Source of the DNA: Clostridiales bacterium | GTDB lineage: Bacteria > Bacillota > Clostridia > Oscillospirales > CAG-272 | Direction of reading: 5' to 3' | NCBI GenBank assembly: GCA_016282315.1 | Contig: JAEEKG010000031.1 | Span: 1 to 61,204 of the forward strand | Length of the DNA: 61,204 bases | Part shown: positions 23,646 through 60,806 of the stretch, one piece after another | Position numbering within the stretch: the stretch's first letter is position 1 | How the letters are laid out: every line of letters begins with the position of its first letter | The notes under the pieces: generated by a model | Databases searched by the model: none | What the model was told of the DNA's origin: nothing | The model's input: only the letters and a program-made list of their open reading frames with translations | Program-made: the position numbers and the translations under genes

Positions 23646-24848
23646 ATGATTTCACAAAAGCATCTTGAATACGGAATTCACAGTTCAGTAATCAGAGAAG
23701 TATTTGAATATGGTGTACAGAGAAAAGCAGAAATAGGAAAAGACAATGTTTTTGATTTCAGCCTGGGTAATCCCAGTATACCTGCACCAAAAAAAGTTAA
23801 TGAAACAATTAAAAAATTACTGAATGATAGTGATCCGACAGAACTTCACGGATATTCTTTGGGACCGGGCGATGAAGGAGTAAGAAAAGCAATTGCCTCA
23901 TACCTGAACGAAAAATATTCAGTTAATGAAAGTTACAAGAGGATTTATATGACCTGCGGAGCAGCAGCTTCTCTCAGTATATCTTTAAATGCGCTGTTGA
24001 ATGAAGATGATGAAGTTATTGTTCTCACGCCGTATTTTCCAGAGTACAGAGTCTTTGTCGAGCATACAGGTGCTAAAGTGGTTGAAGTACAATGCGATGA
24101 AAACACCATGCAGCCCGATGTTTCAAGAATTGAATCTGCTATCAATGAAAAAACTAAAGCGATAATTATCAACAGTCCGAATAACCCGACAGGTGCTATT
24201 TATTCAAGTATGGTGTTGGCAGAAATCGCCGGTGTTGTTTCAGATAAAGAAATACAATATTCTCATCCGATATATGTTTTGTCCGACGAACCATACAGAG
24301 AATTGGCATACGAAGTTAGCGTTCCATATATTGCTAAATATTTCAAAAATGCAATCATTTGCTATTCATTTAGCAAGGCTCTTTCAATTCCAGGAGAAAG
24401 AATAGGATATATATGTGTTTGCGAACGTTGCGAAGATGGTGACATTGTTTTCAAAGCGATTTGCGGAGCGGGTAGAGCTATGGGTTATGTATGTGCCCCT
24501 GTATTGTTCCAGAAAATGTTACCGGAACTTCTCGGAATCACTTCAAACATAGAAGATTATGATAAAAACAGAAGAGAAATTAAGAGAATACTGGATGAAT
24601 GTGGTTTTAAATATATAGATCCTCAAGGTGCATTTTATATTTTCATCAAATCACCCTCGGGAAGTGCGCTGGATTTTTGCGAAGAAGCTAAAAAATGTGA
24701 AATACTGCTTGTCAGAGGCAATGAATTCGGTGCACCATCTTATGCGAGAGCAGCGTATTGTGTCTCTTACAAGATGATAAAAGATTCAGAAAATGCTTGG
24801 AAAAAGCTTGCTGAGCAATACGGAATGAAAGGCAAAGACAATGATTAA
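23646..24848 (+). CDS. Class I/II PLP-dependent aminotransferase (aromatic/aspartate type)
   Basis: ATG at 23646 follows GGAG. The SFSKALSIPGERIG PLP-lysine motif is present. The track start at 23589 is TTG and would run through the terminator. Confidence 0.85.
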   Translation: MISQKHLEYGIHSSVIREVFEYGVQRKAEIGKDNVFDFSLGNPSIPAPKKVNETIKKLLNDSDPTELHGYSLGPGDEGVRKAIASYLNEKYSVNESYKRIYMTCGAAASLSISLNALLNEDDEVIVLTPYFPEYRVFVEHTGAKVVEVQCDENTMQPDVSRIESAINEKTKAIIINSPNNPTGAIYSSMVLAEIAGVVSDKEIQYSHPIYVLSDEPYRELAYEVSVPYIAKYFKNAIICYSFSKALSIPGERIGYICVCERCEDGDIVFKAICGAGRAMGYVCAPVLFQKMLPELLGITSNIEDYDKNRREIKRILDECGFKYIDPQGAFYIFIKSPSGSALDFCEEAKKCEILLVRGNEFGAPSYARAAYCVSYKMIKDSENAWKKLAEQYGMKGKDND

Positions 24849-25935
24849 AGAAGAAAAATTGACTGAAGCAAGAAAACAAATCAATCAGATTGATGATGAG
24901 ATGGCAAAACTCTTTGAAAAGAGAATGGAAGTTACAAAGAATATTGCTGACTATAAAAAAGAACATGGTCTTCCTATAAAAGACAAAAGACGTGAAAATG
25001 AAGTGGTTGAAAGACTGTTGTCTAACATTGCTGATGAAACAATCAGGCAGTATTATGTGCGCTTTATACGCAACACAATAGACATTTCATGTGATTATCA
25101 ATATGCTTTGTCTGAAGGATCAAAAGTGGCTTATTGCGGCGAAAAAGGTGCTTTTGCATACTTTGCTTTAAAACATATTTTCCCATACAGCAAAGAATGC
25201 AGATACGACAATTTTCAAGATGCTTATGAAGCTGTTTTAAATGGTGAATGCGATTATGCAGTGCTTCCAATGGAAAACAGTGCTTCAGGCGAAGTAGGAC
25301 AAGTAACAGACATGCTTTTTTCAGGACCTCTTTTTGTCACTGCGATGTATGATATGCCTATCAATCAGTCATTGATCGGAATTAACGGATCAATGCTTAA
25401 AGATATAAAGAAAGTATACAGTCATCCACAGGCATTGTCTCAATGTGCAAAGTATTTGCAAAGACATAACATAGAAGTAATTGAAACTTCCAGCACATCA
25501 GCTGCTGTTAAATATGTGTCTGAATTGAATGACAAAACAGTTGCAGCCATAGGATGCGGTCAAGCGGCTGACATGTATGGCTTAAACGTAATTGATCCTA
25601 TAATCAATGAACAAAGGGCAAATACAACAAGATTCGGTGTCTTTTCAAGGGCTTTGTCTGACACAGCCGGCAAGAACCCGGGAGACAATTTTATCCTAAC
25701 CTTCACTGTTAAAAATGAAGCAGGTGCACTTGCTGAAGCAGTAGGCATCATATCTTCATATGAATTCAACATGAGAACATTGAGAAGCAGACCGATGAAA
25801 GATTTGCTTTGGAACTATTATTTCTTCGTTGAAGCTGAAGGCGACATAATGAGTGAATCAGGAAAAGCAATGATGAGAGCGCTCTCTTGTTGTTGTGACA
25901 AACTGAAAGTGGCAGGTATTTATCAATACAAGTAA
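24841..25935 (+). CDS. pheA: Bifunctional chorismate mutase / prephenate dehydratase (P-protein)
   Basis: N-terminal CM_2 helix bundle (IDDEMAKLFEKRMEV), a PDT domain (TRFGVF) and a C-terminal ACT domain. Confidence 0.9.
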   Translation: MIKEEKLTEARKQINQIDDEMAKLFEKRMEVTKNIADYKKEHGLPIKDKRRENEVVERLLSNIADETIRQYYVRFIRNTIDISCDYQYALSEGSKVAYCGEKGAFAYFALKHIFPYSKECRYDNFQDAYEAVLNGECDYAVLPMENSASGEVGQVTDMLFSGPLFVTAMYDMPINQSLIGINGSMLKDIKKVYSHPQALSQCAKYLQRHNIEVIETSSTSAAVKYVSELNDKTVAAIGCGQAADMYGLNVIDPIINEQRANTTRFGVFSRALSDTAGKNPGDNFILTFTVKNEAGALAEAVGIISSYEFNMRTLRSRPMKDLLWNYYFFVEAEGDIMSESGKAMMRALSCCCDKLKVAGIYQYK

Positions 25936-43602: not shown

Positions 43603-43633
43603 AAAAAAAGTGCACACCGTTATCGATGTGCAC
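43603..43633 (-). terminator. Rho-independent terminator of the PrsA-like gene
   Basis: GTGCACA / TGTGCAC stem; T7 on the minus strand. Confidence 0.6.
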
Positions 43634-43645
43634 CATGAAACTATA

Positions 43646-45124
43646 TTAATATTTTCCGCTTATGTCGTTCAACACTTTTCTGTTTTCGTTAACTCCGATG
43701 TCACTTAGCTTTTCTACCATCTGGTCGAAATCTTCTTTAAACAGTACTTTGTAAACATCACCTTTGTATGCCGGCAAACCTTCATCTTCAAAGTAAACTA
43801 TATGGTATCCGTATGATGATGTAATAACATCCGCATCACCGTGTTTTCTTTCATCACTGAAAGTCCAGTTGTTGAATCCTGCCACAAGTTCTTTTTCTTT
43901 TACATAAGGATACAAACCACCTCTTGAAATAGAACCCGGGTCTGAAGAATAAGCACAGACAAGTTGAGTGAAATATTCAAGTGTTGGGTTGCTTTTGAAT
44001 TTTTCCATTACGGAATTTGCCATTTTTTCAGCTTTTTCATCTGAACCATAAGTGTTTGCATCAAACAAAATATGTCTTACAGTTCTTGTCTTTGATGTAT
44101 CTGGAGCAATATCTGAAACAATATAATATACTGTCAAAGTTCCTTTTGTTTCATCATCGGATTGTGTGGTGTTAACAACTCGGCTTGAGTACTTTTCAGA
44201 TGTGAACAGCCAATCAATCAAATCATCAGTAAGTTCATTGTCATTCTTTGTCACAGTGAATGTATGTTCATCAATTGATTGATCGGGATTTGAGTCATTG
44301 TCTTCTTTGAGGAATTGTTTATATACAACCAAAAACAATCTGTAGTCTTCAGCCTCTGAGAGAGAAGTGATTCTTTGATTTATCTGTTCAAATGTCTGAG
44401 AGTCGTAAGAGTAAGAAACTCTCATGTATTTGATTTGATCGTAATCATCTCTGTGTTGTTCGTAATACTCGTCAATTTCTTCCTCTGTGACTTCAATTCC
44501 GGAAGTTATTTTTGTCATGTATTTACTTGCAAGAGTTTGCAGTTTCAGACAATTTGCAACATCGTCAGTATTTACACCGTGACCTATTTTAGATAAATCC
44601 GTTTCTTTTGCCCTGATGTTTACCGCGTATAGATCTTCATCACTTAACGTTATACCGTTCTTTAAAGCAAGTTCGCAGGATCTCAGCAAAGATTTTGCAG
44701 TGTTTTCCGCATCATCTTCGAAATAGTCAAACCAGGTTTTGTTACCGGTTCCCATTGATTCTGTTGCATAAGAACATTGCTGATCCTTCAGGTCCTTTGT
44801 CGTATCAACAGGCAGATATTCACCGAAATATTCCTTAAATGAGTTATAGCTGTCATACACTAAATATGACATCATTGTTCCATCTACTGAAAAGTTATCT
44901 GTTTTCAGGAAAACCTGGCTGCGCAATTTAACACCGGAGTTTTCAATTATAGTTAGTGCAATGAATACTAACGCTAATACAAGACAAACTGCAATCAGAG
45001 CAATTACGGAAATCTTTAAAATCTTCTTGTTTCTTGCCTTCTTCTGAAGTGATTGCTGATATTCCTGCTCTCTGCGCTTTTTCTTTTCGGCAGCTGCCTG
45101 TTTATTTCTGACTTTATTTGGCAT
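43646..45124 (-). CDS. Membrane-anchored PpiC/parvulin-type peptidyl-prolyl isomerase (PrsA-like foldase)
   Basis: N-terminal TM anchor and a C-terminal rotamase domain (VRHILF...GGLYPYV...GYHIVY). I prefer the ATG at 45124 after AGAGGAA. Confidence 0.8.
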   Translation of the reverse strand: MPNKVRNKQAAAEKKKRREQEYQQSLQKKARNKKILKISVIALIAVCLVLALVFIALTIIENSGVKLRSQVFLKTDNFSVDGTMMSYLVYDSYNSFKEYFGEYLPVDTTKDLKDQQCSYATESMGTGNKTWFDYFEDDAENTAKSLLRSCELALKNGITLSDEDLYAVNIRAKETDLSKIGHGVNTDDVANCLKLQTLASKYMTKITSGIEVTEEEIDEYYEQHRDDYDQIKYMRVSYSYDSQTFEQINQRITSLSEAEDYRLFLVVYKQFLKEDNDSNPDQSIDEHTFTVTKNDNELTDDLIDWLFTSEKYSSRVVNTTQSDDETKGTLTVYYIVSDIAPDTSKTRTVRHILFDANTYGSDEKAEKMANSVMEKFKSNPTLEYFTQLVCAYSSDPGSISRGGLYPYVKEKELVAGFNNWTFSDERKHGDADVITSSYGYHIVYFEDEGLPAYKGDVYKVLFKEDFDQMVEKLSDIGVNENRKVLNDISGKY

Positions 45125-45176
45125 AATCAATTCCTCTATGAATTAGAAATCCCAGATTTTTATCTGGGAATATCTA

Positions 45177-45662
45177 TTATTCAGCTTCTTTTTCTGTTGT
45201 TTCTTCCGTTGAAGTTTCTTCTGTTGAAGGTTCTTCAGATTGTTCGCTTGAACAGCAACAGCAGGATTCTTTATTTTCTTCCTGCTCGCCTGAACAACAA
45301 CATGATTCCTGATTGTCTTCTTTGCAGCAGCAATCATCGTCCTTGCAGCAGCAACATTCATCGTCTTTACAACAACAAGTATTGCCACCAACTTTGGAAA
45401 TAACATTCTTTACGCAGCTGACACCTTTCTGAACAGCGCTTGTAACATTTTCTTTAAGTGTTGCTAAGTCGCTCTGTGAGGGCAAACCTGCGAAGTTGGC
45501 ATTGAATTGTTTGTTTACTGTGCCGTCCTCGTTTGTGGTTTTCTTGAAAGTATATTTAAATAAAACTGAACGATACACAGTTTCATCATTTGTTTCATTT
45601 GTTTTTGAACAGAATGGGGTTAACAAAAGTGCTGCAGCAGCGGCAACTACTAATCCTTTCAT
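45177..45662 (-). CDS. Secreted or lipid-anchored protein with five CCC/CCCC runs (function unknown)
   Basis: Strong SD (GGGAGGA, 7 nt spacing). Signal peptide MKGLVVAAAAALLLTPFC. Residues 96-137 read CCCKDDECCCCKDDDCCCKEDNQESCCCSGEQEENKESCCCC, followed by an acidic S/T/E tail. Confidence 0.7.
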   Translation of the reverse strand: MKGLVVAAAAALLLTPFCSKTNETNDETVYRSVLFKYTFKKTTNEDGTVNKQFNANFAGLPSQSDLATLKENVTSAVQKGVSCVKNVISKVGGNTCCCKDDECCCCKDDDCCCKEDNQESCCCSGEQEENKESCCCCSSEQSEEPSTEETSTEETTEKEAE

Positions 45663-45804
45663 TTTTACATCCTCCCTGATAAATTAGTTGTAATGAAATT
45701 ATACTATAAATATAAGAAAAATCAAGAGTAAACAAATCGAATTGGTTTGAAGCTGTATTGTAAAGAAGGCGGTTGTGTGGTAAGATTGTTGCGAAAAGAA
45801 GGTG

Positions 45805-46506
45805 ATGAATTTGATTATTTCAGGAGTGCAAAAACTGACCTTACTGGACTATCCAGGCCACACTGCATGTACAGTTTTCTTTTCCGGTTGCAATTTCAGA
45901 TGTCCATTTTGTCACAATGCAATATTAGTTGAAAGGCCTAATGAGACTATAAGAATTCCGGAAGAAGAATTCTTTTCTTTTTTGAACAAGAGAAAAGGGC
46001 TGCTTGATGGTGTTGCCATAACGGGCGGCGAGCCTACGCTCAACAAAGATTTGCCCGAATTCATGTCAAAAATAAAAGAACTCGGTTATGCAGTCAAACT
46101 CGATTCCAATGGTACAAACCCGGAAATGCTCAAAAGAATCATTGATGAAAAACTTGTTGACTACATAGCTATGGATATAAAGAATTCAAAAGAGAAGTAC
46201 CCTATTACATCAGGGGTTGATGAAAGATTCATGCCAAAAGTGGAAGAGTCAGTTGAATTGCTTATGCAAGGAAGAGTCGATTTTGAATTCAGAACCACAA
46301 TAGTAAAAGAATTCCATACAATTGAAGATATGGTGAAAATAAGCGAATGGATCAAGGGGGATGAAAAATACTTCCTTCAGGCATTCAAGGATTCGGGTGA
46401 CCTAATAAACCCTGATTTGCAGGGAATAGAGTACTCTGAATATGAAAAATATCTTCAAGCTGTAAAACCATTGCTTCCCAATTCTGCATTAAGGGGAGTG
46501 TCATAG
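45805..46506 (+). CDS. nrdG: Anaerobic ribonucleoside-triphosphate reductase activating protein (radical SAM)
   Basis: CNFRCPFCHN cluster motif with the preceding LLDYPG; GGEPT. Confidence 0.9.
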   Translation: MNLIISGVQKLTLLDYPGHTACTVFFSGCNFRCPFCHNAILVERPNETIRIPEEEFFSFLNKRKGLLDGVAITGGEPTLNKDLPEFMSKIKELGYAVKLDSNGTNPEMLKRIIDEKLVDYIAMDIKNSKEKYPITSGVDERFMPKVEESVELLMQGRVDFEFRTTIVKEFHTIEDMVKISEWIKGDEKYFLQAFKDSGDLINPDLQGIEYSEYEKYLQAVKPLLPNSALRGVS

Positions 46507-46573: not shown

Positions 46574-46589
46574 ACACAATATATAGATG
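46574..46589 (+). promoter_or_regulatory. Possible distal NrdR box
   Basis: ACACAATATATAGATG matches the left two thirds of the NrdR-box consensus (acaCwAtATaTwGtgt); the right arm is degenerate. Confidence 0.3.
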
Positions 46590-46710: not shown

Positions 46711-46726
46711 ACACAATATGTTGTGT
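46711..46726 (+). promoter_or_regulatory. NrdR box 2
   Basis: ACACAATATGTTGTGT is a close match to the NrdR-box consensus. It lies 42 nt from box 1 and abuts the -35 element. Confidence 0.7.
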
Positions 46727-46805: not shown

Positions 46806-49172
46806 ATGTACAGAGTAATCAAGAGAGACGGAAAAGTTACCGAATTTGATCTTGTTAAAATTAACGAAGCGATAAAGAAAGCTTTTGAAGCAACAAAAAC
46901 AAATTATACTGATCAAATCATCGATTTCATCTCTTTGAAAGTAACAGCAGACTTCAACAAAAAGATTAAAAATGATCAGATCTCAGTTGAAGATATCCAG
47001 GACAGCGTTGAAAAGGTTCTTGGAGAAGCAGGATATGGAGATGTAGCAAAAGCTTACATTCTCTACAGAAAGAACAGAGAAAAGATACGTAACATGAATG
47101 CTACCTACCTTGACTACAAAGCATTGGTAGACAGCTATGTTAAAGCGACAGACTGGCGTGTTAAAGAGAACTCAACAGTTACCTACTCAGTAGGCGGTCT
47201 TATTCTTTCTAACTCAGGCGCAATAACAGCAAACTATTGGTTGTCTGAAATATATGACCAGGAAATTGCAGACGCACACAGAAACGGCGATATACACATC
47301 CATGACCTCAGCATGCTCACAGGTTATTGTGCAGGTTGGTCATTAAGACAGCTCATCAAAGAAGGTCTTGGCGGAGTAGCAGGAAAGATTTCAAGCTCAC
47401 CAGCTAGCCACCTTGCAACACTTTGTAACCAGATGGTTAACTTCCTCGGAATCATGCAGAATGAATGGGCTGGTGCTCAGGCATTCTCATCATTCGATAC
47501 ATATCTTGCACCATTTGTTCGCGAAGATAAACTTGATTATCAGCAAGTTAAAAAATGTATTGAATCATTTATATATGGCGTTAATACTCCATCAAGATGG
47601 GGTACACAGGCTCCGTTCTCAAATATTACACTCGACTGGAAAGTTCCGGCTGACCTTGCTGAACAACCATGTATAGTCGGCGGCAAAGAAATGAGCTACA
47701 CATACGCTGATTGTAAAAAAGAAATGGATATGGTTAACAAAGCATTCATCGAAGTCATGATAGAAGGCGATGCAAATGGCAGAGGATTCCAGTACCCAAT
47801 TCCAACATACTCAATCACAAGAGACTTTGATTGGTCTGAAACAGAGAACAACAAACTTCTCTTTGAAATGGCAAGTAAATACGGTACACCATACTTTTCT
47901 AACTATGTAAACTCAGATATGGAGCCAAGCGATGTTCGTAGTATGTGCTGCAGACTGAGACTTGACTTGAGAGAACTCCGTAAGAAATCCGGTGGTTTCT
48001 TTGGAAGCGGCGAATCAACAGGTTCAGTTGGTGTTGTTACAATCAACATGCCAAGAATAGCATACCTGTCCAAAACAGAAGAAGAATTCTATCAGAGACT
48101 TGATAGAATGATGGATATTTCAGCTCGTTCCTTGAAGACAAAACGTACTGTTATAACAAAACTCTTGGATGAAGGTTTGTATCCATACACAAAGAGATAT
48201 CTCGGAACATTTAATAACCACTTCTCAACAATAGGTCTTGTCGGTATGAACGAAGCAGGCCTCAACGCTTGCTGGATCAAGAAAGATATGACTCATCCCG
48301 AGACACAGCAGTTCACAATCAACGTCCTCAATCACATGCGTGAAAGACTCATGGATTACCAGGAAAAATACGGTGATTTGTACAACCTTGAAGCAACTCC
48401 TGCTGAAGCAACATCATACAGACTTGCTAAACATGACAAGGCAAAATATCCGGATATTATCACAGCAAGCATGAGTGAAACACCATACTATACTAACTCA
48501 AGCCATCTTCCGGTTGGATACACAGACGATATATTCACAGCTCTGGATATCCAGGATGAATTGCAGACATTGTACACATCAGGTACTGTATTCCATGCAT
48601 TCCTCGGAGAAAAGCTCCCTGACTGGAAAGCAGCAGCTGATCTTGTAAGAAAGATTTCTGAAAATTACAGACTTCCTTATTACACATTGTCACCAACATA
48701 TTCAATCTGTACTGATCACGGATATCTCGCAGGTGAACAATATACTTGCCCGATATGCGGTAAAAAGACAGAAGTAAACAGCCGTATTACAGGTTACTAT
48801 CGTCCTGTTCAGAACTGGAACGACGGAAAAGCTCAAGAGTTCAAACAGCGTAAAGAATATGTCATTGCTACATCTAAATTGACACACAAAGGTGTCCTCC
48901 AGAATGCAAGTGACTGTCCTCCAGTAACAAAAGAGCAAATCAACGAAGTATCAGATGAACTCAAATTGTTTACTACAAAAACATGCCCGAACTGTAAGAT
49001 AGCTAAACAAATGCTCGAAAAAGCAGGTATTTCTTACACAAATCTCTATGCAGATGAACATAAAGAAGAAGCTATCAATTTGGGAATCAACCAAGCACCA
49101 ACACTTGTTGTAGGCGGCAATAAGTACAAAGGTGTTCCGGAAATCAAGAAATACATAGAATCACTTTCATAA
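46806..49172 (+). CDS. nrdD: Anaerobic (class III) ribonucleoside-triphosphate reductase with an N-terminal ATP-cone and a C-terminal fused thioredoxin-fold (CPNC) domain
   Basis: ATP-cone at the start (MYRVIKRDGKV.EFD), the finger-loop SMCCRL, the Zn ribbon CTDHG...CPICG and the glycyl-radical motif SRITGYYRPV. About 70 extra residues follow: LKLFTTKTCPNCKIAK...APTLVVGG. Confidence 0.93.
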   Translation: MYRVIKRDGKVTEFDLVKINEAIKKAFEATKTNYTDQIIDFISLKVTADFNKKIKNDQISVEDIQDSVEKVLGEAGYGDVAKAYILYRKNREKIRNMNATYLDYKALVDSYVKATDWRVKENSTVTYSVGGLILSNSGAITANYWLSEIYDQEIADAHRNGDIHIHDLSMLTGYCAGWSLRQLIKEGLGGVAGKISSSPASHLATLCNQMVNFLGIMQNEWAGAQAFSSFDTYLAPFVREDKLDYQQVKKCIESFIYGVNTPSRWGTQAPFSNITLDWKVPADLAEQPCIVGGKEMSYTYADCKKEMDMVNKAFIEVMIEGDANGRGFQYPIPTYSITRDFDWSETENNKLLFEMASKYGTPYFSNYVNSDMEPSDVRSMCCRLRLDLRELRKKSGGFFGSGESTGSVGVVTINMPRIAYLSKTEEEFYQRLDRMMDISARSLKTKRTVITKLLDEGLYPYTKRYLGTFNNHFSTIGLVGMNEAGLNACWIKKDMTHPETQQFTINVLNHMRERLMDYQEKYGDLYNLEATPAEATSYRLAKHDKAKYPDIITASMSETPYYTNSSHLPVGYTDDIFTALDIQDELQTLYTSGTVFHAFLGEKLPDWKAAADLVRKISENYRLPYYTLSPTYSICTDHGYLAGEQYTCPICGKKTEVNSRITGYYRPVQNWNDGKAQEFKQRKEYVIATSKLTHKGVLQNASDCPPVTKEQINEVSDELKLFTTKTCPNCKIAKQMLEKAGISYTNLYADEHKEEAINLGINQAPTLVVGGNKYKGVPEIKKYIESLS

Positions 49173-49176
49173 CAAT

Positions 49177-50088
49177 ATGTACGATATTATAGTTATCGGC
49201 TCAGGGCCCGCAGGTTTAACTGCGGCTCTGTATGCCAGAAGAGCAGGAAAAAGCGTTCTCGTAATCGAAAAAGCTTCTTTTGGGGGACAAGTTAATTATT
49301 CTCCGAAAATTGAAAACTATCCGGGATCAAAACAGATAAGCGGTTCTGAATTTGCCGACAAGTTTGTTGATCAGGTTATGGGACACGGAGCTGAATTTGA
49401 TTTCGGAGAAGTTGTCGATGTTGTTGACAATGGTCAGACCAAAACAGTAAAAACTGATTCTTCTGAATATGAATCAAAAACCGTTATCATAGCAGCCGGT
49501 GTAAAGCACAGACATCTGGGTGTTCCGGGAGAAGAAAAATTCTCGGGCGAAGGAGTCTCCTATTGTGCCATCTGTGACGGTGACTTCTTTGCCGGAAGAG
49601 ATGTAGTTGTAGTTGGTGGAGGAAACAGTGCTTTCCAGGATGCAATATTGCTTTCTGAAAAATGTAAATCCGTGACCATGGTACAGGATCTTCCGTACTT
49701 TACCGGAGAAGCATCTTCACTCGAAGTATTAAAGTCAAGAAGCAATGTAAAGTTCATGACTTCATCCGGGGTTTTAGAATTCAAAGGTGAAGACAAACTG
49801 GAGTCAGTTGTAGTCAAACATAAAGATACTGACACAGTCGAAGAATTAAGAACTGACGGAGCTTTTGTTGCTATAGGTCTTGTGCCTGACAACAAAGCGT
49901 TTGCAAAAGTAGCTGAACTTGATGAAAGAGGATACATTTCCTCAGATGAAAAGTGTATGACTAAGACTCCGGGCGTATATGTTGCCGGAGACTGCAGGAC
50001 CAAGAGCATCAGACAGATTACAACTGCAGTTGCAGATGGATCTGTTGCTGCATTGGCAGCGGTCAATTACATTGACAAAAATCGTTAA
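49177..50088 (+). CDS. trxB: Thioredoxin-disulfide reductase
   Basis: GSGPAG FAD motif, redox CAICDG, GGGNSA NADPH motif; starts 4 nt after nrdD. Confidence 0.9.
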   Translation: MYDIIVIGSGPAGLTAALYARRAGKSVLVIEKASFGGQVNYSPKIENYPGSKQISGSEFADKFVDQVMGHGAEFDFGEVVDVVDNGQTKTVKTDSSEYESKTVIIAAGVKHRHLGVPGEEKFSGEGVSYCAICDGDFFAGRDVVVVGGGNSAFQDAILLSEKCKSVTMVQDLPYFTGEASSLEVLKSRSNVKFMTSSGVLEFKGEDKLESVVVKHKDTDTVEELRTDGAFVAIGLVPDNKAFAKVAELDERGYISSDEKCMTKTPGVYVAGDCRTKSIRQITTAVADGSVAALAAVNYIDKNR

Positions 50089-50164: not shown

Positions 50165-51322
50165 TTAATTATTCTTTTGCATGGATGCGCATTCTTCAAT
50201 GTTCTTTTTGAGCATGTCTATAACTGCAGTTATTCTAGGAATATTCATAGTTTTTTTGGACATGCTGTATGTGTTATTAGCAAATATTTCAATCGATTCA
50301 AGTCTATCAAAATTGTATTTCGGCATATTGTTCAGCAAAAACAATCTTTCATAAGAAGTCTTTGCAAAAGGTGTTCCACCCCATTTTGTTTTTGGATTTG
50401 CTATGTCTTTTATAGGCAGGTAATAACCGAGAGAGTTACCGCATCCGAAAAGAGGGGCATGTTTTAAATATTTCAACGTATTTGAATCTCTCAAAAGCCC
50501 AAAGTCAGAATAATTTCTGTCATCATTGTTCATAATTCTGTCTATAGTGAACATCTGACTTAAAAAAGAGAATGTGTCCGTTATTCCGAGTTTCTCACAA
50601 CAATTCACATAGTGTTGTAAATCAGAAACATTTTTTTCTTTATTGAACAACCTCATAATAGCAGATGCGGGAATGAATTCTATATCAGTACTTGTGAAAC
50701 AATCGCATTTGCTGAATGGTAAATCTTTGTCCATGTAAACATCGTAATGAACATAATCGAATTCAAGTCTCTTGCAGATTTCAGAGAAAACTGCGTCGTT
50801 CAAAGGTTGTTGTCTGTATGGAGAATTTCCGGTCTTGATCAATGTTATTTGTCCATTGTTATAATTCCAGTATTTTTTTGTGTAACCGGCTGTTGTGTTC
50901 TCGGGAGATCTCAAGTCAAATCCATAGGCATCAAATTTCATCCCGTAAAGAATACTGGACACATCGTTAGAAAACTCATTTTCAAAGAAGTTGACACTTT
51001 TCCACTTCAAATCCACGTCGCTTTTTCTCATCCAGTAACAATCCTGAAGACTTAATGCCATTCCCTTGAGTTTGAGCTGGGATATGTTTTTAAGGCATAT
51101 GCAACTGAGCAGGTAATCTACCCCTGCTTTATCTTTGGGCATTGAACGTTCATTCCACCAGACTTCAAATGATTTTTTTGTGCAAGTCCCATCAATGTTC
51201 ATAGACCCGGGCGGCATCAATTCTTTTGAGTAAACAGTGATAATCTTTTTTAATCCGGATCTTTTTTCATCAAAATCAAATTCTGCTACGGGATCATCTT
51301 TATGCATTAGTGTGTATTTCAT
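50165..51322 (-). CDS. HipA-like (kinase-fold) domain protein with a non-canonical catalytic motif
   Basis: The layout resembles Firmicute HipA-like proteins (...SLQDCYWMR..., NFFENEFS). The loop that is usually N.DRH..NFG reads NDDRNYSDFG. Confidence 0.45.
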   Translation of the reverse strand: MKYTLMHKDDPVAEFDFDEKRSGLKKIITVYSKELMPPGSMNIDGTCTKKSFEVWWNERSMPKDKAGVDYLLSCICLKNISQLKLKGMALSLQDCYWMRKSDVDLKWKSVNFFENEFSNDVSSILYGMKFDAYGFDLRSPENTTAGYTKKYWNYNNGQITLIKTGNSPYRQQPLNDAVFSEICKRLEFDYVHYDVYMDKDLPFSKCDCFTSTDIEFIPASAIMRLFNKEKNVSDLQHYVNCCEKLGITDTFSFLSQMFTIDRIMNNDDRNYSDFGLLRDSNTLKYLKHAPLFGCGNSLGYYLPIKDIANPKTKWGGTPFAKTSYERLFLLNNMPKYNFDRLESIEIFANNTYSMSKKTMNIPRITAVIDMLKKNIEECASMQKNN

Positions 51323-51372: not shown

Positions 51373-51930
51373 TTAATCTGTGAATCCAAAAATTGAATTT
51401 ATTTTGCGCACTAAGTTTTTAATATTTGCCTCATGGTTTTCATATACTTCTAAAATTGTGTAATCAACATTGCCGCCTGCCGGTAAATATTTTCCATTTT
51501 TGTCAACCTTTATGTAGTGAAGAGAAGTCGACACTTTGCCTGCCTGGATCTTTGTGATGCTGATATCTGCAGTGTACTCAACTGCTTTTCCACCAACAAT
51601 CTTGACATTTACACCATCCGGAGAAATGGAATAACCATCAACCCCCACTTCTCCCGGCATGCTTATAGCAATAAAACCTGTCCAAGACAACCAATTCGGT
51701 CTTGCAATATAATACTGGTATCTTGTGGTGTCAAAACCGGAAGAATAAGAAATTGTATCCTTCCAACTCTCAGTTCCTCTTGACTTAACCATGTCGACAT
51801 ATTTGTTGTATGGGATGTATGATGTGAAAACCCAAATAACGGTTAGAATTACCAACAGTGCAAGAAGAGCTACACAAACTATGATGGCTATTTTTTTTGC
51901 ATTGCTCTTTTTTTCAACCTTTGCTGCCAT
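51373..51930 (-). CDS. Hypothetical N-terminally anchored membrane protein
   Basis: AAGAGGA SD and one TM helix (IAIIVCVALLALLVILTVIWVF). I recognise no motif. Confidence 0.5.
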   Translation of the reverse strand: MAAKVEKKSNAKKIAIIVCVALLALLVILTVIWVFTSYIPYNKYVDMVKSRGTESWKDTISYSSGFDTTRYQYYIARPNWLSWTGFIAISMPGEVGVDGYSISPDGVNVKIVGGKAVEYTADISITKIQAGKVSTSLHYIKVDKNGKYLPAGGNVDYTILEVYENHEANIKNLVRKINSIFGFTD

Positions 51931-59143: not shown

Positions 59144-60541
59144 GTGTATTACAGACTAAATAAAGACATCGCCCTAAGAAAATGGAGATATGTCGATCGG
59201 GCAATATATGTAAAGGGAGTGGATCATGCGCTTGGGGTTAGCGAAGAAGAATTCAAAACACTGCTTTTGTGCGATGGAAGTACAAATATAGATAAGAGCA
59301 GTGTCACAGAAGACTTGATTGCAAAAGGATACATTTCCGAGTGCAAAAAGGGTGATAACGTGTACGACTGGTCAAAACTGAAAGTTTATGACAACATGTA
59401 CTTTCCCAGAATGAATCTAATGATTACCGGAAAATGCAACCTTAACTGTTTACACTGTTTCAACGCAAAAGACAATGCTCCATTGAATAGCGAACTGAAA
59501 TATGAAGAGATAGTTAGATTACTGGATGAAGCTAAAAACATAGGTGTTCATGCTTTCACAATAACAGGAGGAGAACCGCTTGTTCACCCGAGATTTTTAG
59601 ACATAATAAAAAGCATATACAAGAGGGATATGTATGTATTCGAACTGAATACAAACGGAGTCCTGATAACCCCAAAGATACTCGAAGAATTCAAAAAAAT
59701 CGGATGCTTTCCTCTCATAAAAATCTCATTTGACGGAATTGGCTACCACAATTGGATGAGGCAGAATCCAAAAGCCGAGGAAAAAACGATTAGTGCTATC
59801 AAGCTCTGTGTTGAAAATGGTTTCAGGGTCAAAGCACAGACACAAGTGAACAAGAAAAATATAAGTGTTATGCTTGACACTGCAAAGTTTTTGAATGAAC
59901 TTGGCGTTGACGAAATGCGTATAATAAGAACAACAGAGGCACCAAGGTGGGAAGAGAATTGTCCGGACTCAACAATCCCGATTGAAGAATACTACGAAAA
60001 AATGTTGGATTTTGCCAAGGAATACAAAGATTCAGGCATGAAAATGACTATAGACATCTGGCAGTTAATGACACTATTTCCCAGAGACAAATCATACTCA
60101 TTGAAAACTATAAAGACAAACAAGAAAGAATTTAATATCAGAATTCCGATGTGCAAGGGAAACAGGGGAATGATTGCAGTAAGCAGCAGCGGAGAAGTTG
60201 TGCCGTGTCTTCAGATGTCAGGATACCTTATGGAAAAGGGGATCAGTCTATCTAATGTAAAGGAAAAGTCTCTTAGAGAAATTATAACCAAAAGTGACTA
60301 CTGCGACATAGCAACTGCTCCAATATTGTCACTAATTTTAAAAAATGACAAGTGCTCGAGTTGCAAATACATAAAGGCTTGCGCAGGAGGATGTCCGGCT
60401 CTCGGTTTGCTGTATTCAAATCCCGCGGGAAACATGTTTCATGAAGATATAACAAAGTGCGTTTTCTTTGAAAACGGATGGTATGACAGGGTACTTAGTG
60501 CCATGGATGACTGGAAAGTCACTAACCCATTGAATATTTAA
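59144..60541 (+). CDS. Radical SAM / SPASM-domain peptide maturase with an N-terminal RRE-like extension
   Basis: CX3CX2C is at C98/C102/C105 (CNLNCLHC), followed by GGEPL. The C-terminal auxiliary-cluster motifs are CKGNRGMIAVSSSGEVVPC and CSSCKYIKACAGGC (CX2CX5CX3C). The start is GTG, and there is no in-frame ATG before residue 85. Confidence 0.85.
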   Translation: MYYRLNKDIALRKWRYVDRAIYVKGVDHALGVSEEEFKTLLLCDGSTNIDKSSVTEDLIAKGYISECKKGDNVYDWSKLKVYDNMYFPRMNLMITGKCNLNCLHCFNAKDNAPLNSELKYEEIVRLLDEAKNIGVHAFTITGGEPLVHPRFLDIIKSIYKRDMYVFELNTNGVLITPKILEEFKKIGCFPLIKISFDGIGYHNWMRQNPKAEEKTISAIKLCVENGFRVKAQTQVNKKNISVMLDTAKFLNELGVDEMRIIRTTEAPRWEENCPDSTIPIEEYYEKMLDFAKEYKDSGMKMTIDIWQLMTLFPRDKSYSLKTIKTNKKEFNIRIPMCKGNRGMIAVSSSGEVVPCLQMSGYLMEKGISLSNVKEKSLREIITKSDYCDIATAPILSLILKNDKCSSCKYIKACAGGCPALGLLYSNPAGNMFHEDITKCVFFENGWYDRVLSAMDDWKVTNPLNI

Positions 60542-60593
60542 TAGATATTTGCTAAAATATAAATGGTTATATGGTTTTTAAGGAGAAATAGTC

Positions 60594-60806
60594 ATGACAA
60601 GAGAAGATCTGCTTAAAGGACTCACCAAAGAGCAAAAAGAAAAACTGGAAAACTGCAAAACCACAGAAGAATTGATTAATGTCGCCAAAAAAGAAGGAAT
60701 TGAACTCACAGATGAACAACTAGAAGCAGTAACCGGCGGATTTTGTGACAGCGAAGAGGATAATACCAAGAAAAAAGACGATGGTAAAAGGATTAAGGAG
60801 AAATGA
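60594..60806 (+). CDS. Nif11-like GG-leader RiPP precursor (70 aa); predicted core FCDSEEDNTKKKDDGKRIKEK
   Basis: AAGGAG lies 8 nt before the ATG. The helical leader ...LTKEQKEKLENCKTTEELINVAKKEGIELTDEQLEAVTGG ends in a double-Gly motif. The gene is 52 nt downstream of the rSAM gene. Confidence 0.7.
   Translation: MTREDLLKGLTKEQKEKLENCKTTEELINVAKKEGIELTDEQLEAVTGGFCDSEEDNTKKKDDGKRIKEK

Follow-up and report, generated by a model that had tools for sequence, protein, structure and literature searches.

We examined a gene in a 61,204-nt stretch of DNA from a Clostridiales bacterium (the window; positions 1 to 61,204 of contig JAEEKG010000031.1, assembly GCA_016282315.1), whose 161-aa product carries 17 cysteines in five runs of three or four. 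The gene is real and transcribed in vivo, and the comparison of homologues indicates that its Cys modules are conserved, modular and recurrent. As far as the alignments tell, the acidic tail is hypervariable and the Cys runs are an elaboration of it that is specific to the lineage; metal-thiolate binding is the most plausible role for them. A script count agreed exactly with the first-pass annotation of this DNA, which had reported 17 Cys in five CCC/CCCC runs within residues 96-137. The protein contains 19 Cys in total; the runs lie at CCC 96-98, CCCC 103-106, CCC 111-113, CCC 121-123 and CCCC 134-137, and the other two residues are C18 and C83. TGT and TGC codons are mixed inside the runs. 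Cys makes up 1.6% of the residues in the long open reading frames (ORFs) of the window, giving an expectation of about 4e-6 CCC triplets per position, and in the 142 kb that we scanned (the window and related loci) multiple CCC runs were confined to this gene family. The single other in-frame CCC among the long ORFs of the window, at aa 349-351 near the C-terminus of a chorismate mutase/prephenate dehydratase-like protein (24841..25935, plus strand), is probably due to chance.

The coding status of the ORF is supported by homologues in the same frame, by a Shine-Dalgarno (SD) sequence as strong as previously described (GGGAGG, 8 nt before the ATG) and by RNA contigs. The two overlapping ORFs that had been called spurious (45143..45406 on the minus strand and 45053..45403 on the plus strand) do exist and are without homologue support. 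RNA contigs from six ruminant-gut metatranscriptome assemblies of several studies (X14, X18, X25-X28) cover the ORF at 95-99% identity or more, and the lack of expression that the first-pass annotation had named as a possible refutation was thus not what we found. The contigs focus on the Cys-run ORF, while the rest of the surrounding 10 kb is mostly uncovered except for the highly conserved nrdD; this distribution argues against carry-over of DNA in the RNA data. None of the RNA contigs reaches upstream of position 45678, which fits the predicted promoter. Both promoter hexamers are kept in 4/4 sister loci, where an extended -10 TG is added. DNA of the organism is present in bovine, sheep and goat gut metagenomes.

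The protein belongs to a small family. A search of 5.8 billion proteins yielded three homologues with 53-60% identity, and no more than ten came from a profile search that covered 1.84 billion cluster representatives exhaustively; a domain-profile search with cluster members included brought the total to about 35 family sequences, and scans of genome and metagenome contigs added one extra locus each. A profile built from the tail alone retrieved no sequence among the 5.8 billion proteins, the family's own members included, and this negative therefore carries no information on CCC cassettes in other proteins. The family is restricted to one narrow uncultured Clostridia lineage, and the nearest named records are metagenome-assembled genomes labelled only as Clostridiales or Clostridia bacterium. 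All members share three parts, namely a hydrophobic segment (M-[KG]-K-G-F-G…AAAAALL-[TV]-P-[YF]), a domain of about 75 aa (consensus RSLLLKxKxK…EDG…FAGxPTKEDxExxKxNV…) and an acidic tail, which is variable. Only the domain is conserved throughout the family. The earlier view that it cannot be assigned holds: the Cys-run protein had no match in Pfam or NCBIfam with E of 1 or less, the Pfam matches of 13 + 6 family members did not rise above sub-threshold noise (YtxH, apolipoprotein, DUF2730), the domain profile found no PDB sequence at E below 1, and Foldseek against the PDB found no match with E of 0.05 or better and a TM-score above 0.4 for either of the two AlphaFold2 (AF2) models. Since neither the PDB sequence search nor Foldseek returned a significant match, the domain is an orphan. 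A likeness of its ββββα fold to Pur-alpha was considered and rejected as not significant. One member, P0012, carries a precomputed Pfam accession (PF28479.1) that is absent from the local Pfam copy and not interpretable; a very recent Pfam entry may cover part of the family.

Within the clade that contains the window's protein (the query clade) all 12 sequences, representing about five species-level groups, hold 2-5 aligned CCC runs, which are the best-conserved element of the tail. The spacers between the runs diverge while the runs stay aligned, and run positions are kept across species at 57-63% identity. In a codon alignment of the query clade all indels are in-frame and TGT/TGC changes between species are synonymous; together with the mixture of both codons inside the runs, these codon differences disfavour recent slippage. 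The modules read [E/G]-CCC-His in the sister species, with His replaced by Lys, Ser or a fourth Cys in the species of the window, and take the form [D/E/G]-CCC-[H/K] at the level of the family. One query-clade variant shows CSC where its sister has CCC. Two near-identical proteins are set apart by exactly one 14-aa unit, CCCHHSEETEEHER, and we therefore conclude that the tail evolves by gain and loss of cassettes. Five metagenome assemblies spanning the Cys-run segment and six RNA assemblies contained no indel in the ORF; the roughly eight point variants among them, which include N117D, E102D, E126K, E148K and two synonymous changes, leave every Cys codon untouched. In close homologues the runs are conserved, with in-frame variation only, and do not represent random low complexity.

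Outside the query clade the content of the tail is far less constant. The tail of P0008 has 18 Cys arranged as CC, CCC and CxC, that of P0009 shows four CxC motifs of the classical kind, and CCC runs number two in P0016, one in P0017 and none in their near-identical relatives P0013 and P0015. In a neighbour-joining tree of the domain, Cys-rich tails appear at no fewer than four separated positions (query clade, P0008, P0009, P0016/P0017) with Cys-free relatives between them, and in several sub-clades the tail is free of Cys and carries short motifs of another kind. Such hypervariability in length, motifs and Cys content, with about half of the sub-clades Cys-free, closely related proteins carrying 0, 1 or 2 CCC runs, a varying copy number of the unit and a tail that AF2 predicts to be disordered, is what one would expect if the tail were a fast-evolving acidic linker of generic function, if any (charge, spacing, hard-cation binding), and its Cys runs a nearly neutral by-product of (TGY)n expansion. 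We nevertheless regard this explanation as unlikely. Cys is among the rarest residues here, yet runs of exactly three have recurred in independent branches; their context is acidic in every case, and the residue after them is mostly His or Lys. The positions of the runs persist at the identities given above through synonymous codon turnover, the sampled populations hold no polymorphic indel, and no other gene in the 142 kb has multiple runs. The first-pass annotation had held that homologues lacking the runs, or varying in length out of frame, would refute its proposal; distant homologues do lack the runs, whereas all length variation is in-frame and the runs recur in acidic context and are kept in the lineages that have them. 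The Cys-free tails of P0012, P0013 and P0015-P0018, and those of P0010 and P0019-P0023, end in conserved short linear motifs (GDFCTDEE[AE]xxF-COOH and EEDFENIFDDEPE…SEAL, respectively), which suggest docking to a partner in those lineages; the latter bears a faint likeness to the acidic C-terminal tail through which AgrD-type peptides are recognized.

Regarding the architecture of the protein, both the hydrophobic N-terminus and the acidic S/T/E tail of the first description are present. Throughout the family the N-terminus comprises 1-2 positive charges followed by 16-20 uncharged residues up to an invariant Pro, which gives the n-region of +1 or +2 and the uncharged h-region of Sec-type signals. 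The KD19 of this segment is 0.9-2.1 in the family, as compared to 3.25 for the transmembrane (TM) helix of the neighbouring parvulin. The signal peptide that had been proposed is therefore supported by the charged n-region and the uncharged h-region but not by a processing site: a signal peptidase (SPase) I (-3,-1) site conserved family-wide was not found after the h-region, and the sole candidate, S-K-T↓N, is clade-specific. The segment looks signal-like, and may be kept uncleaved as an anchor. We rejected the lipoprotein (SPase II substrate) that had been considered possible, as L-T-P-F-C18 is off the lipobox [LVI][ASTVI][GAS]-C, all the sister species have Lys in place of C18, and the family as a whole lacks this Cys. 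In the AF2 models a short N-terminal helix is followed by strands at 18-57 (predicted local distance difference test, pLDDT, about 80) and a helix at 63-92, and the Cys-run segment is disordered (pLDDT below 50). All family tails have a D/E content of 26-43%. Of the 66 residues of the query tail (aa 96 to 161), 17 are Cys (26%), without exception part of CCC/CCCC runs; the tail has no aromatic residue and no His, as compared to 4-7 His in the sister species, whose tails with EGCCCH modules are not His-dominated either. On balance, the tail probably lies outside the cell.

The reading that we tentatively favour, though with less than even confidence, is that of a membrane-tethered or exported protein with a disordered acidic tail whose CCC modules would bind thiophilic metals; its membrane or extracytoplasmic location, the binding of metals and their identity are what we infer. 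The N-terminal signal-like segment would target or tether the protein to the cytoplasmic membrane, with the remainder most likely outside, and the long acidic tail would project from the domain of four strands plus helix. The five [acidic]-CCC(C)-[K/S] modules in the species of the window, and the CCC-His modules in its sisters, would form clusters of thiolate ligands for thiophilic divalent or monovalent metals (Zn, Ni, Co, Cd, Cu or Fe). In the rumen, a sulfidic and strongly reducing habitat in which thiols would stay reduced after export, the tail might then buffer or capture metals in the manner of a metallothionein, and in-frame gain and loss of repeats would adjust the number of its modules. 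Each Cys3-His module of the sister species would offer four ligands, and these modules as well as the CxC-type tail of P0009 fit the same metal-ligand logic. Adjacent-Cys peptides, including EEGCCH from Hpn, are high-affinity ligands of Zn(II) and Ni(II) (PMC10221980), and CCC clusters are typical of ciliate metallothioneins of the Cd/Zn type (PMC4862169). Operationally, metallothioneins are recognized by a Cys content over 15-20%, clustered motifs and few or no aromatic residues, and the query tail has this composition. The envelope location is favoured by the signal-like N-terminus and by envelope neighbours, namely a TM-anchored parvulin in one sub-clade and a CPBP intramembrane protease in others.

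Several points weigh against this metal-binding reading. The hydrophobicity of the N-terminal segment is moderate, the family has no conserved SPase I or II site, and the segment could instead pack against the beta-sheet in a soluble protein. The AF2 models are of low confidence (mean pLDDT 56 for the full-length and 60 for the domain-only model). Pfam, NCBIfam and PDB-sequence scans revealed no homology to metallothionein, Hpn or metallochaperone families, and no gene for a metal transporter, regulator or chaperone is linked in any locus examined. Many family members are without Cys in the tail, and the core function of the family would therefore need no thiols. Moreover, three consecutive Cys do not easily chelate one ion, and any metal stoichiometry is speculative. 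A bolder form of the proposal, which we consider rather doubtful, is that the family represents an undescribed prokaryotic metallothionein-like class, in which an orphan domain tethered to the outer face of the membrane in strict anaerobes would carry, on its disordered acidic tail, evolvable CCC(H/K) cassettes capturing Ni, Co, Zn and Cu from the sulfide-rich rumen, with a capacity set by copy number.

Among known systems, the tail is most like a metallothionein or an Hpn-type tail, while the protein as a whole is in no known family, as sequence models fail and the carrier domain is an orphan. The statement in the first-pass annotation that metallothioneins do not use such runs was too strong, since CCC makes up about 32% of the Cys clusters in the Cd-metallothioneins of Tetrahymena (PMC4862169). 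These proteins (metallothionein family 7a) resemble the query tail in the dominance of CCC, in their modular repeats, in evolution by copy number and in Cys content (24-30% as compared to 26%; PMC4862169). They are, however, eukaryotic, cytosolic and stand-alone, with strict CCC/CC/CxC submodules and Lys-rich spacers, whereas the query tail belongs to a bacterial protein that also has a folded domain and an N-terminus resembling a signal, has strongly acidic spacers and shares no homology with them. Hpn and Hpn-like of H. pylori and the Cys/His-rich metal-binding tails of Ni-chaperones of the SlyD, HypB and UreE type likewise carry acidic-Gly-CC-His motifs in a disordered low-complexity region, comparable to (H)EGCCCH in the sister species. 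Hpn, however, is a cytoplasmic protein dominated by His, while the query tail is His-free and its Cys stand in runs of 3-4. No genes for Ni enzymes or their maturation were linked at the loci examined. SmtA/BmtA/PmtA and MymT are also small bacterial Cys-rich metal-thiolate proteins, and one source reports PmtA on the cell surface (PMC11237414). The SmtA type is distinguished by a Zn4Cys9His2 cluster, a zinc-finger-like fold and a match to Pfam Metallothio_Pro, as opposed to the consecutive-Cys runs, predicted disorder and missing Pfam match of the query; no Metallothio_Pro match was obtained for the query (Pfam/NCBIfam, E of 1 or below) or for the family members scanned. YtxH-like proteins (PF12732), which are small membrane-anchored stress proteins, share a G/A-rich hydrophobic N-terminal segment ending in Pro and followed by helical or charged regions, but they are without the four-strand beta domain. 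YtxH matches were limited to the helical region of three distant members (15-18 bits, cut-off 37.5), and the query had none.

We found the divergent nrdG-nrdD-trxB cluster in every family locus examined, where it is the sole neighbour cluster throughout. This constancy, which persists even at 30% identity of the domain, would suit a cytoplasm-facing protein working with the anaerobic ribonucleotide reductase (RNR) system, its Cys tail serving as a reservoir of Zn or Fe-S or as a sacrificial thiol buffer against oxygen; the partners would be the [4Fe-4S] activase NrdG, NrdD with a Zn ribbon and a fused glutaredoxin-like domain, and the TrxB-like reductase. In some members the residues flanking the hydrophobic segment do leave the orientation ambiguous. 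The n-/h-region pattern is nevertheless that of a Sec signal, the Cys are not conserved across the family, and two sub-clades have a CPBP gene that separates the family gene from nrdG. The lineage is also narrow: identities across loci are 80-95% for NrdD, 56-75% for NrdG and 30-73% for the domain of the small protein, and since the genomes are all close, the synteny may be inherited gene order without functional meaning. We consider a role with the RNR improbable. Co-regulation by NrdR was examined and rejected, because the two NrdR-box-like palindromes (46574-46589 and 46711-46726, one of them with 1 mismatch) are confined to the region upstream of nrdD, with none in the intergenic region that nrdG and the family gene share, and the count does not exceed chance (2 matches, 1.1 expected). 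NrdD with its fused C-terminal glutaredoxin-like domain is followed by the TrxB-like flavoprotein (46806..50088, plus strand) in an arrangement kept in all related loci, which suggests that the class III RNR has a thiol reductant system of its own. As a whole, the genomic context provides no functional anchor for the Cys cassettes, whose function we infer.

A further explanation invokes covalent chemistry on the Cys residues, i.e. disulfide cross-linking into an envelope or spore-coat-like layer, S-acylation as in a 'cysteine string', or ranthipeptide-like thioethers from Cys to Asp/Glu made by a radical SAM (rSAM)/SPASM enzyme whose gene would lie elsewhere. The Cys adjoin Asp or Glu throughout, a pairing that ranthipeptide maturases use (PapB-type CX3D chemistry), and Cys-rich coat and exosporium proteins exist in Firmicutes. 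The window also encodes an rSAM/SPASM protein together with a Nif11-like precursor with a GG leader, whose core GGFCDSEE loosely resembles the GDFCTDEE tail motif of some Cys-poor family members. Yet housekeeping genes and a distance of 13.5 kb separate the Cys-run gene from this cassette, which comes with a precursor of its own, and the Cys-run protein has a folded, conserved domain and no recognizable leader. Disulfides are unlikely in the reducing milieu of the rumen, and bacterial S-acylation of Cys strings is not established. The adjacent rSAM enzyme is a bona fide NrdG, scoring as an equivalog; with a protein of 161 aa that carries a conserved domain, this led us to reject a precursor of a ribosomally synthesized and post-translationally modified peptide (RiPP). 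Taken together, we hold covalent modification of the Cys to be very improbable. The distant cassette itself (59144..60806, plus strand) comprises the rSAM/SPASM protein of 465 aa with sub-threshold peptide-maturase matches, and then a 70-aa ORF with a Nif11-like leader and a double-glycine site (…EAVTGG↓FCDSEEDNTKKKDDGKRIKEK); it is probably an unannotated, ranthipeptide-like RiPP cassette.

Table 1. Features of the Cys-run gene and its surroundings in the window.
Feature	Position	Strand	Basis or remark
Cys-run gene, coding sequence	45177..45662	-	161 aa + stop; ORF list, same-frame homologues, RNA contigs
N-terminal hydrophobic segment, aa 3-17 (GLVVAAAAALLLTPF)	45612..45656	-	signal-peptide-like or signal anchor
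Orphan domain, aa 18-92	45387..45611	-	four beta-strands, then long helix; sole part conserved family-wide
Cys-run segment, aa 96-137	45252..45377	-	five CCC/CCCC runs; spacers rich in K/D/E
Acidic S/T/E-rich C-terminal tail, aa 138-161	45180..45251	-	composition
Shine-Dalgarno sequence GGGAGG	45671..45676	-	8 nt before ATG; AGGAGG in sister loci
Predicted sigma-70-type promoter of the Cys-run gene	45698..45725	-	TTGATT, 16 nt spacer, TATAAT; 10/12 consensus positions
Stem-loop between Cys-run and parvulin genes, terminator or attenuator	45150..45169	-	stem invariant, loop variable in five loci
Parvulin-type peptidyl-prolyl isomerase, N-terminally TM-anchored, PrsA/PpiD-like	43646..45124	-	Pfam Rotamase_3 E 5e-14, Rotamase E 9e-13; TM helix KD19 3.25
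Strong terminator beyond the parvulin gene	43634..43609		predicted
nrdG (anaerobic RNR activase), divergent neighbour	45802..46506	+	228 bits to TIGR02495 NrdG2, cut-off 131

In all 5/5 query-clade loci (window, L001, L002, L004, L005) the gene is located between the divergent nrdG and the parvulin gene (Table 1), whereas the linkage to parvulin is absent in L006-L010; in distant family loci infC or a SIS-domain gene follows downstream instead. The foldase had been placed 46 nt downstream, which applies if translation starts at the TTG at 45130; from the ATG at 45124, which aligns with the start codons of the homologues, the distance is 52 nt. The hairpin between the two genes folds with a free energy of -14 to -17 kcal/mol (z-scores -3.1 to -3.7). 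A UUGUUUUUU tract follows it in the four sister loci, forming a canonical intrinsic terminator, whereas the U-tract in the window is degenerate (UUUCUAAUUC). The loss of the U-tract in the species of the window may raise read-through into the parvulin gene. One RNA contig (45038-45199) does bridge the hairpin into this gene. The apparent operon with a PrsA-like foldase is hence supported by the query-clade linkage and by the bridging contig, and weakened by the conserved terminator hairpin and by the missing linkage in distant loci; we regard the Cys-run gene as mainly its own transcription unit with partial read-through, and do not see a tight operon here. A gene for a CPBP/Rce1-like intramembrane protease ends about 20 nt upstream of the family gene in two distant sub-clades (L006 3596-4981, L008 3876-4979, L009 2026-3129). 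Both genes are likely co-transcribed there, and the linkage may point to proteolytic processing of the N-terminal segment or the tail in this family. No homologue of the CPBP protease was found in the window. Beside the nrd cluster two adjacent minus-strand genes (50165..51322, 385 aa, and 51373..51930, 185 aa) without Pfam/NCBIfam match form an orphan pair, which occupies the same position in L001.

Even if the tail were neutral, the family would document recurrent poly-Cys low complexity in a bacterial protein of the secreted type. Short modules of CCC in acidic context could also serve as metal-binding tags. Should the cassettes indeed bind metals, the family would illustrate cleanly how a disordered tail gains and loses ligand modules in nature. 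The protein would in that case be a rare bacterial metallothionein-like protein of uncultured rumen Clostridia, based on consecutive Cys and possibly extracytoplasmic. Cu, Zn, Co and Ni are nutritionally managed in ruminants, and the finding would then bear on the uptake or detoxification of thiophilic trace metals by gut anaerobes in places where the availability of these metals is restricted by sulfide.

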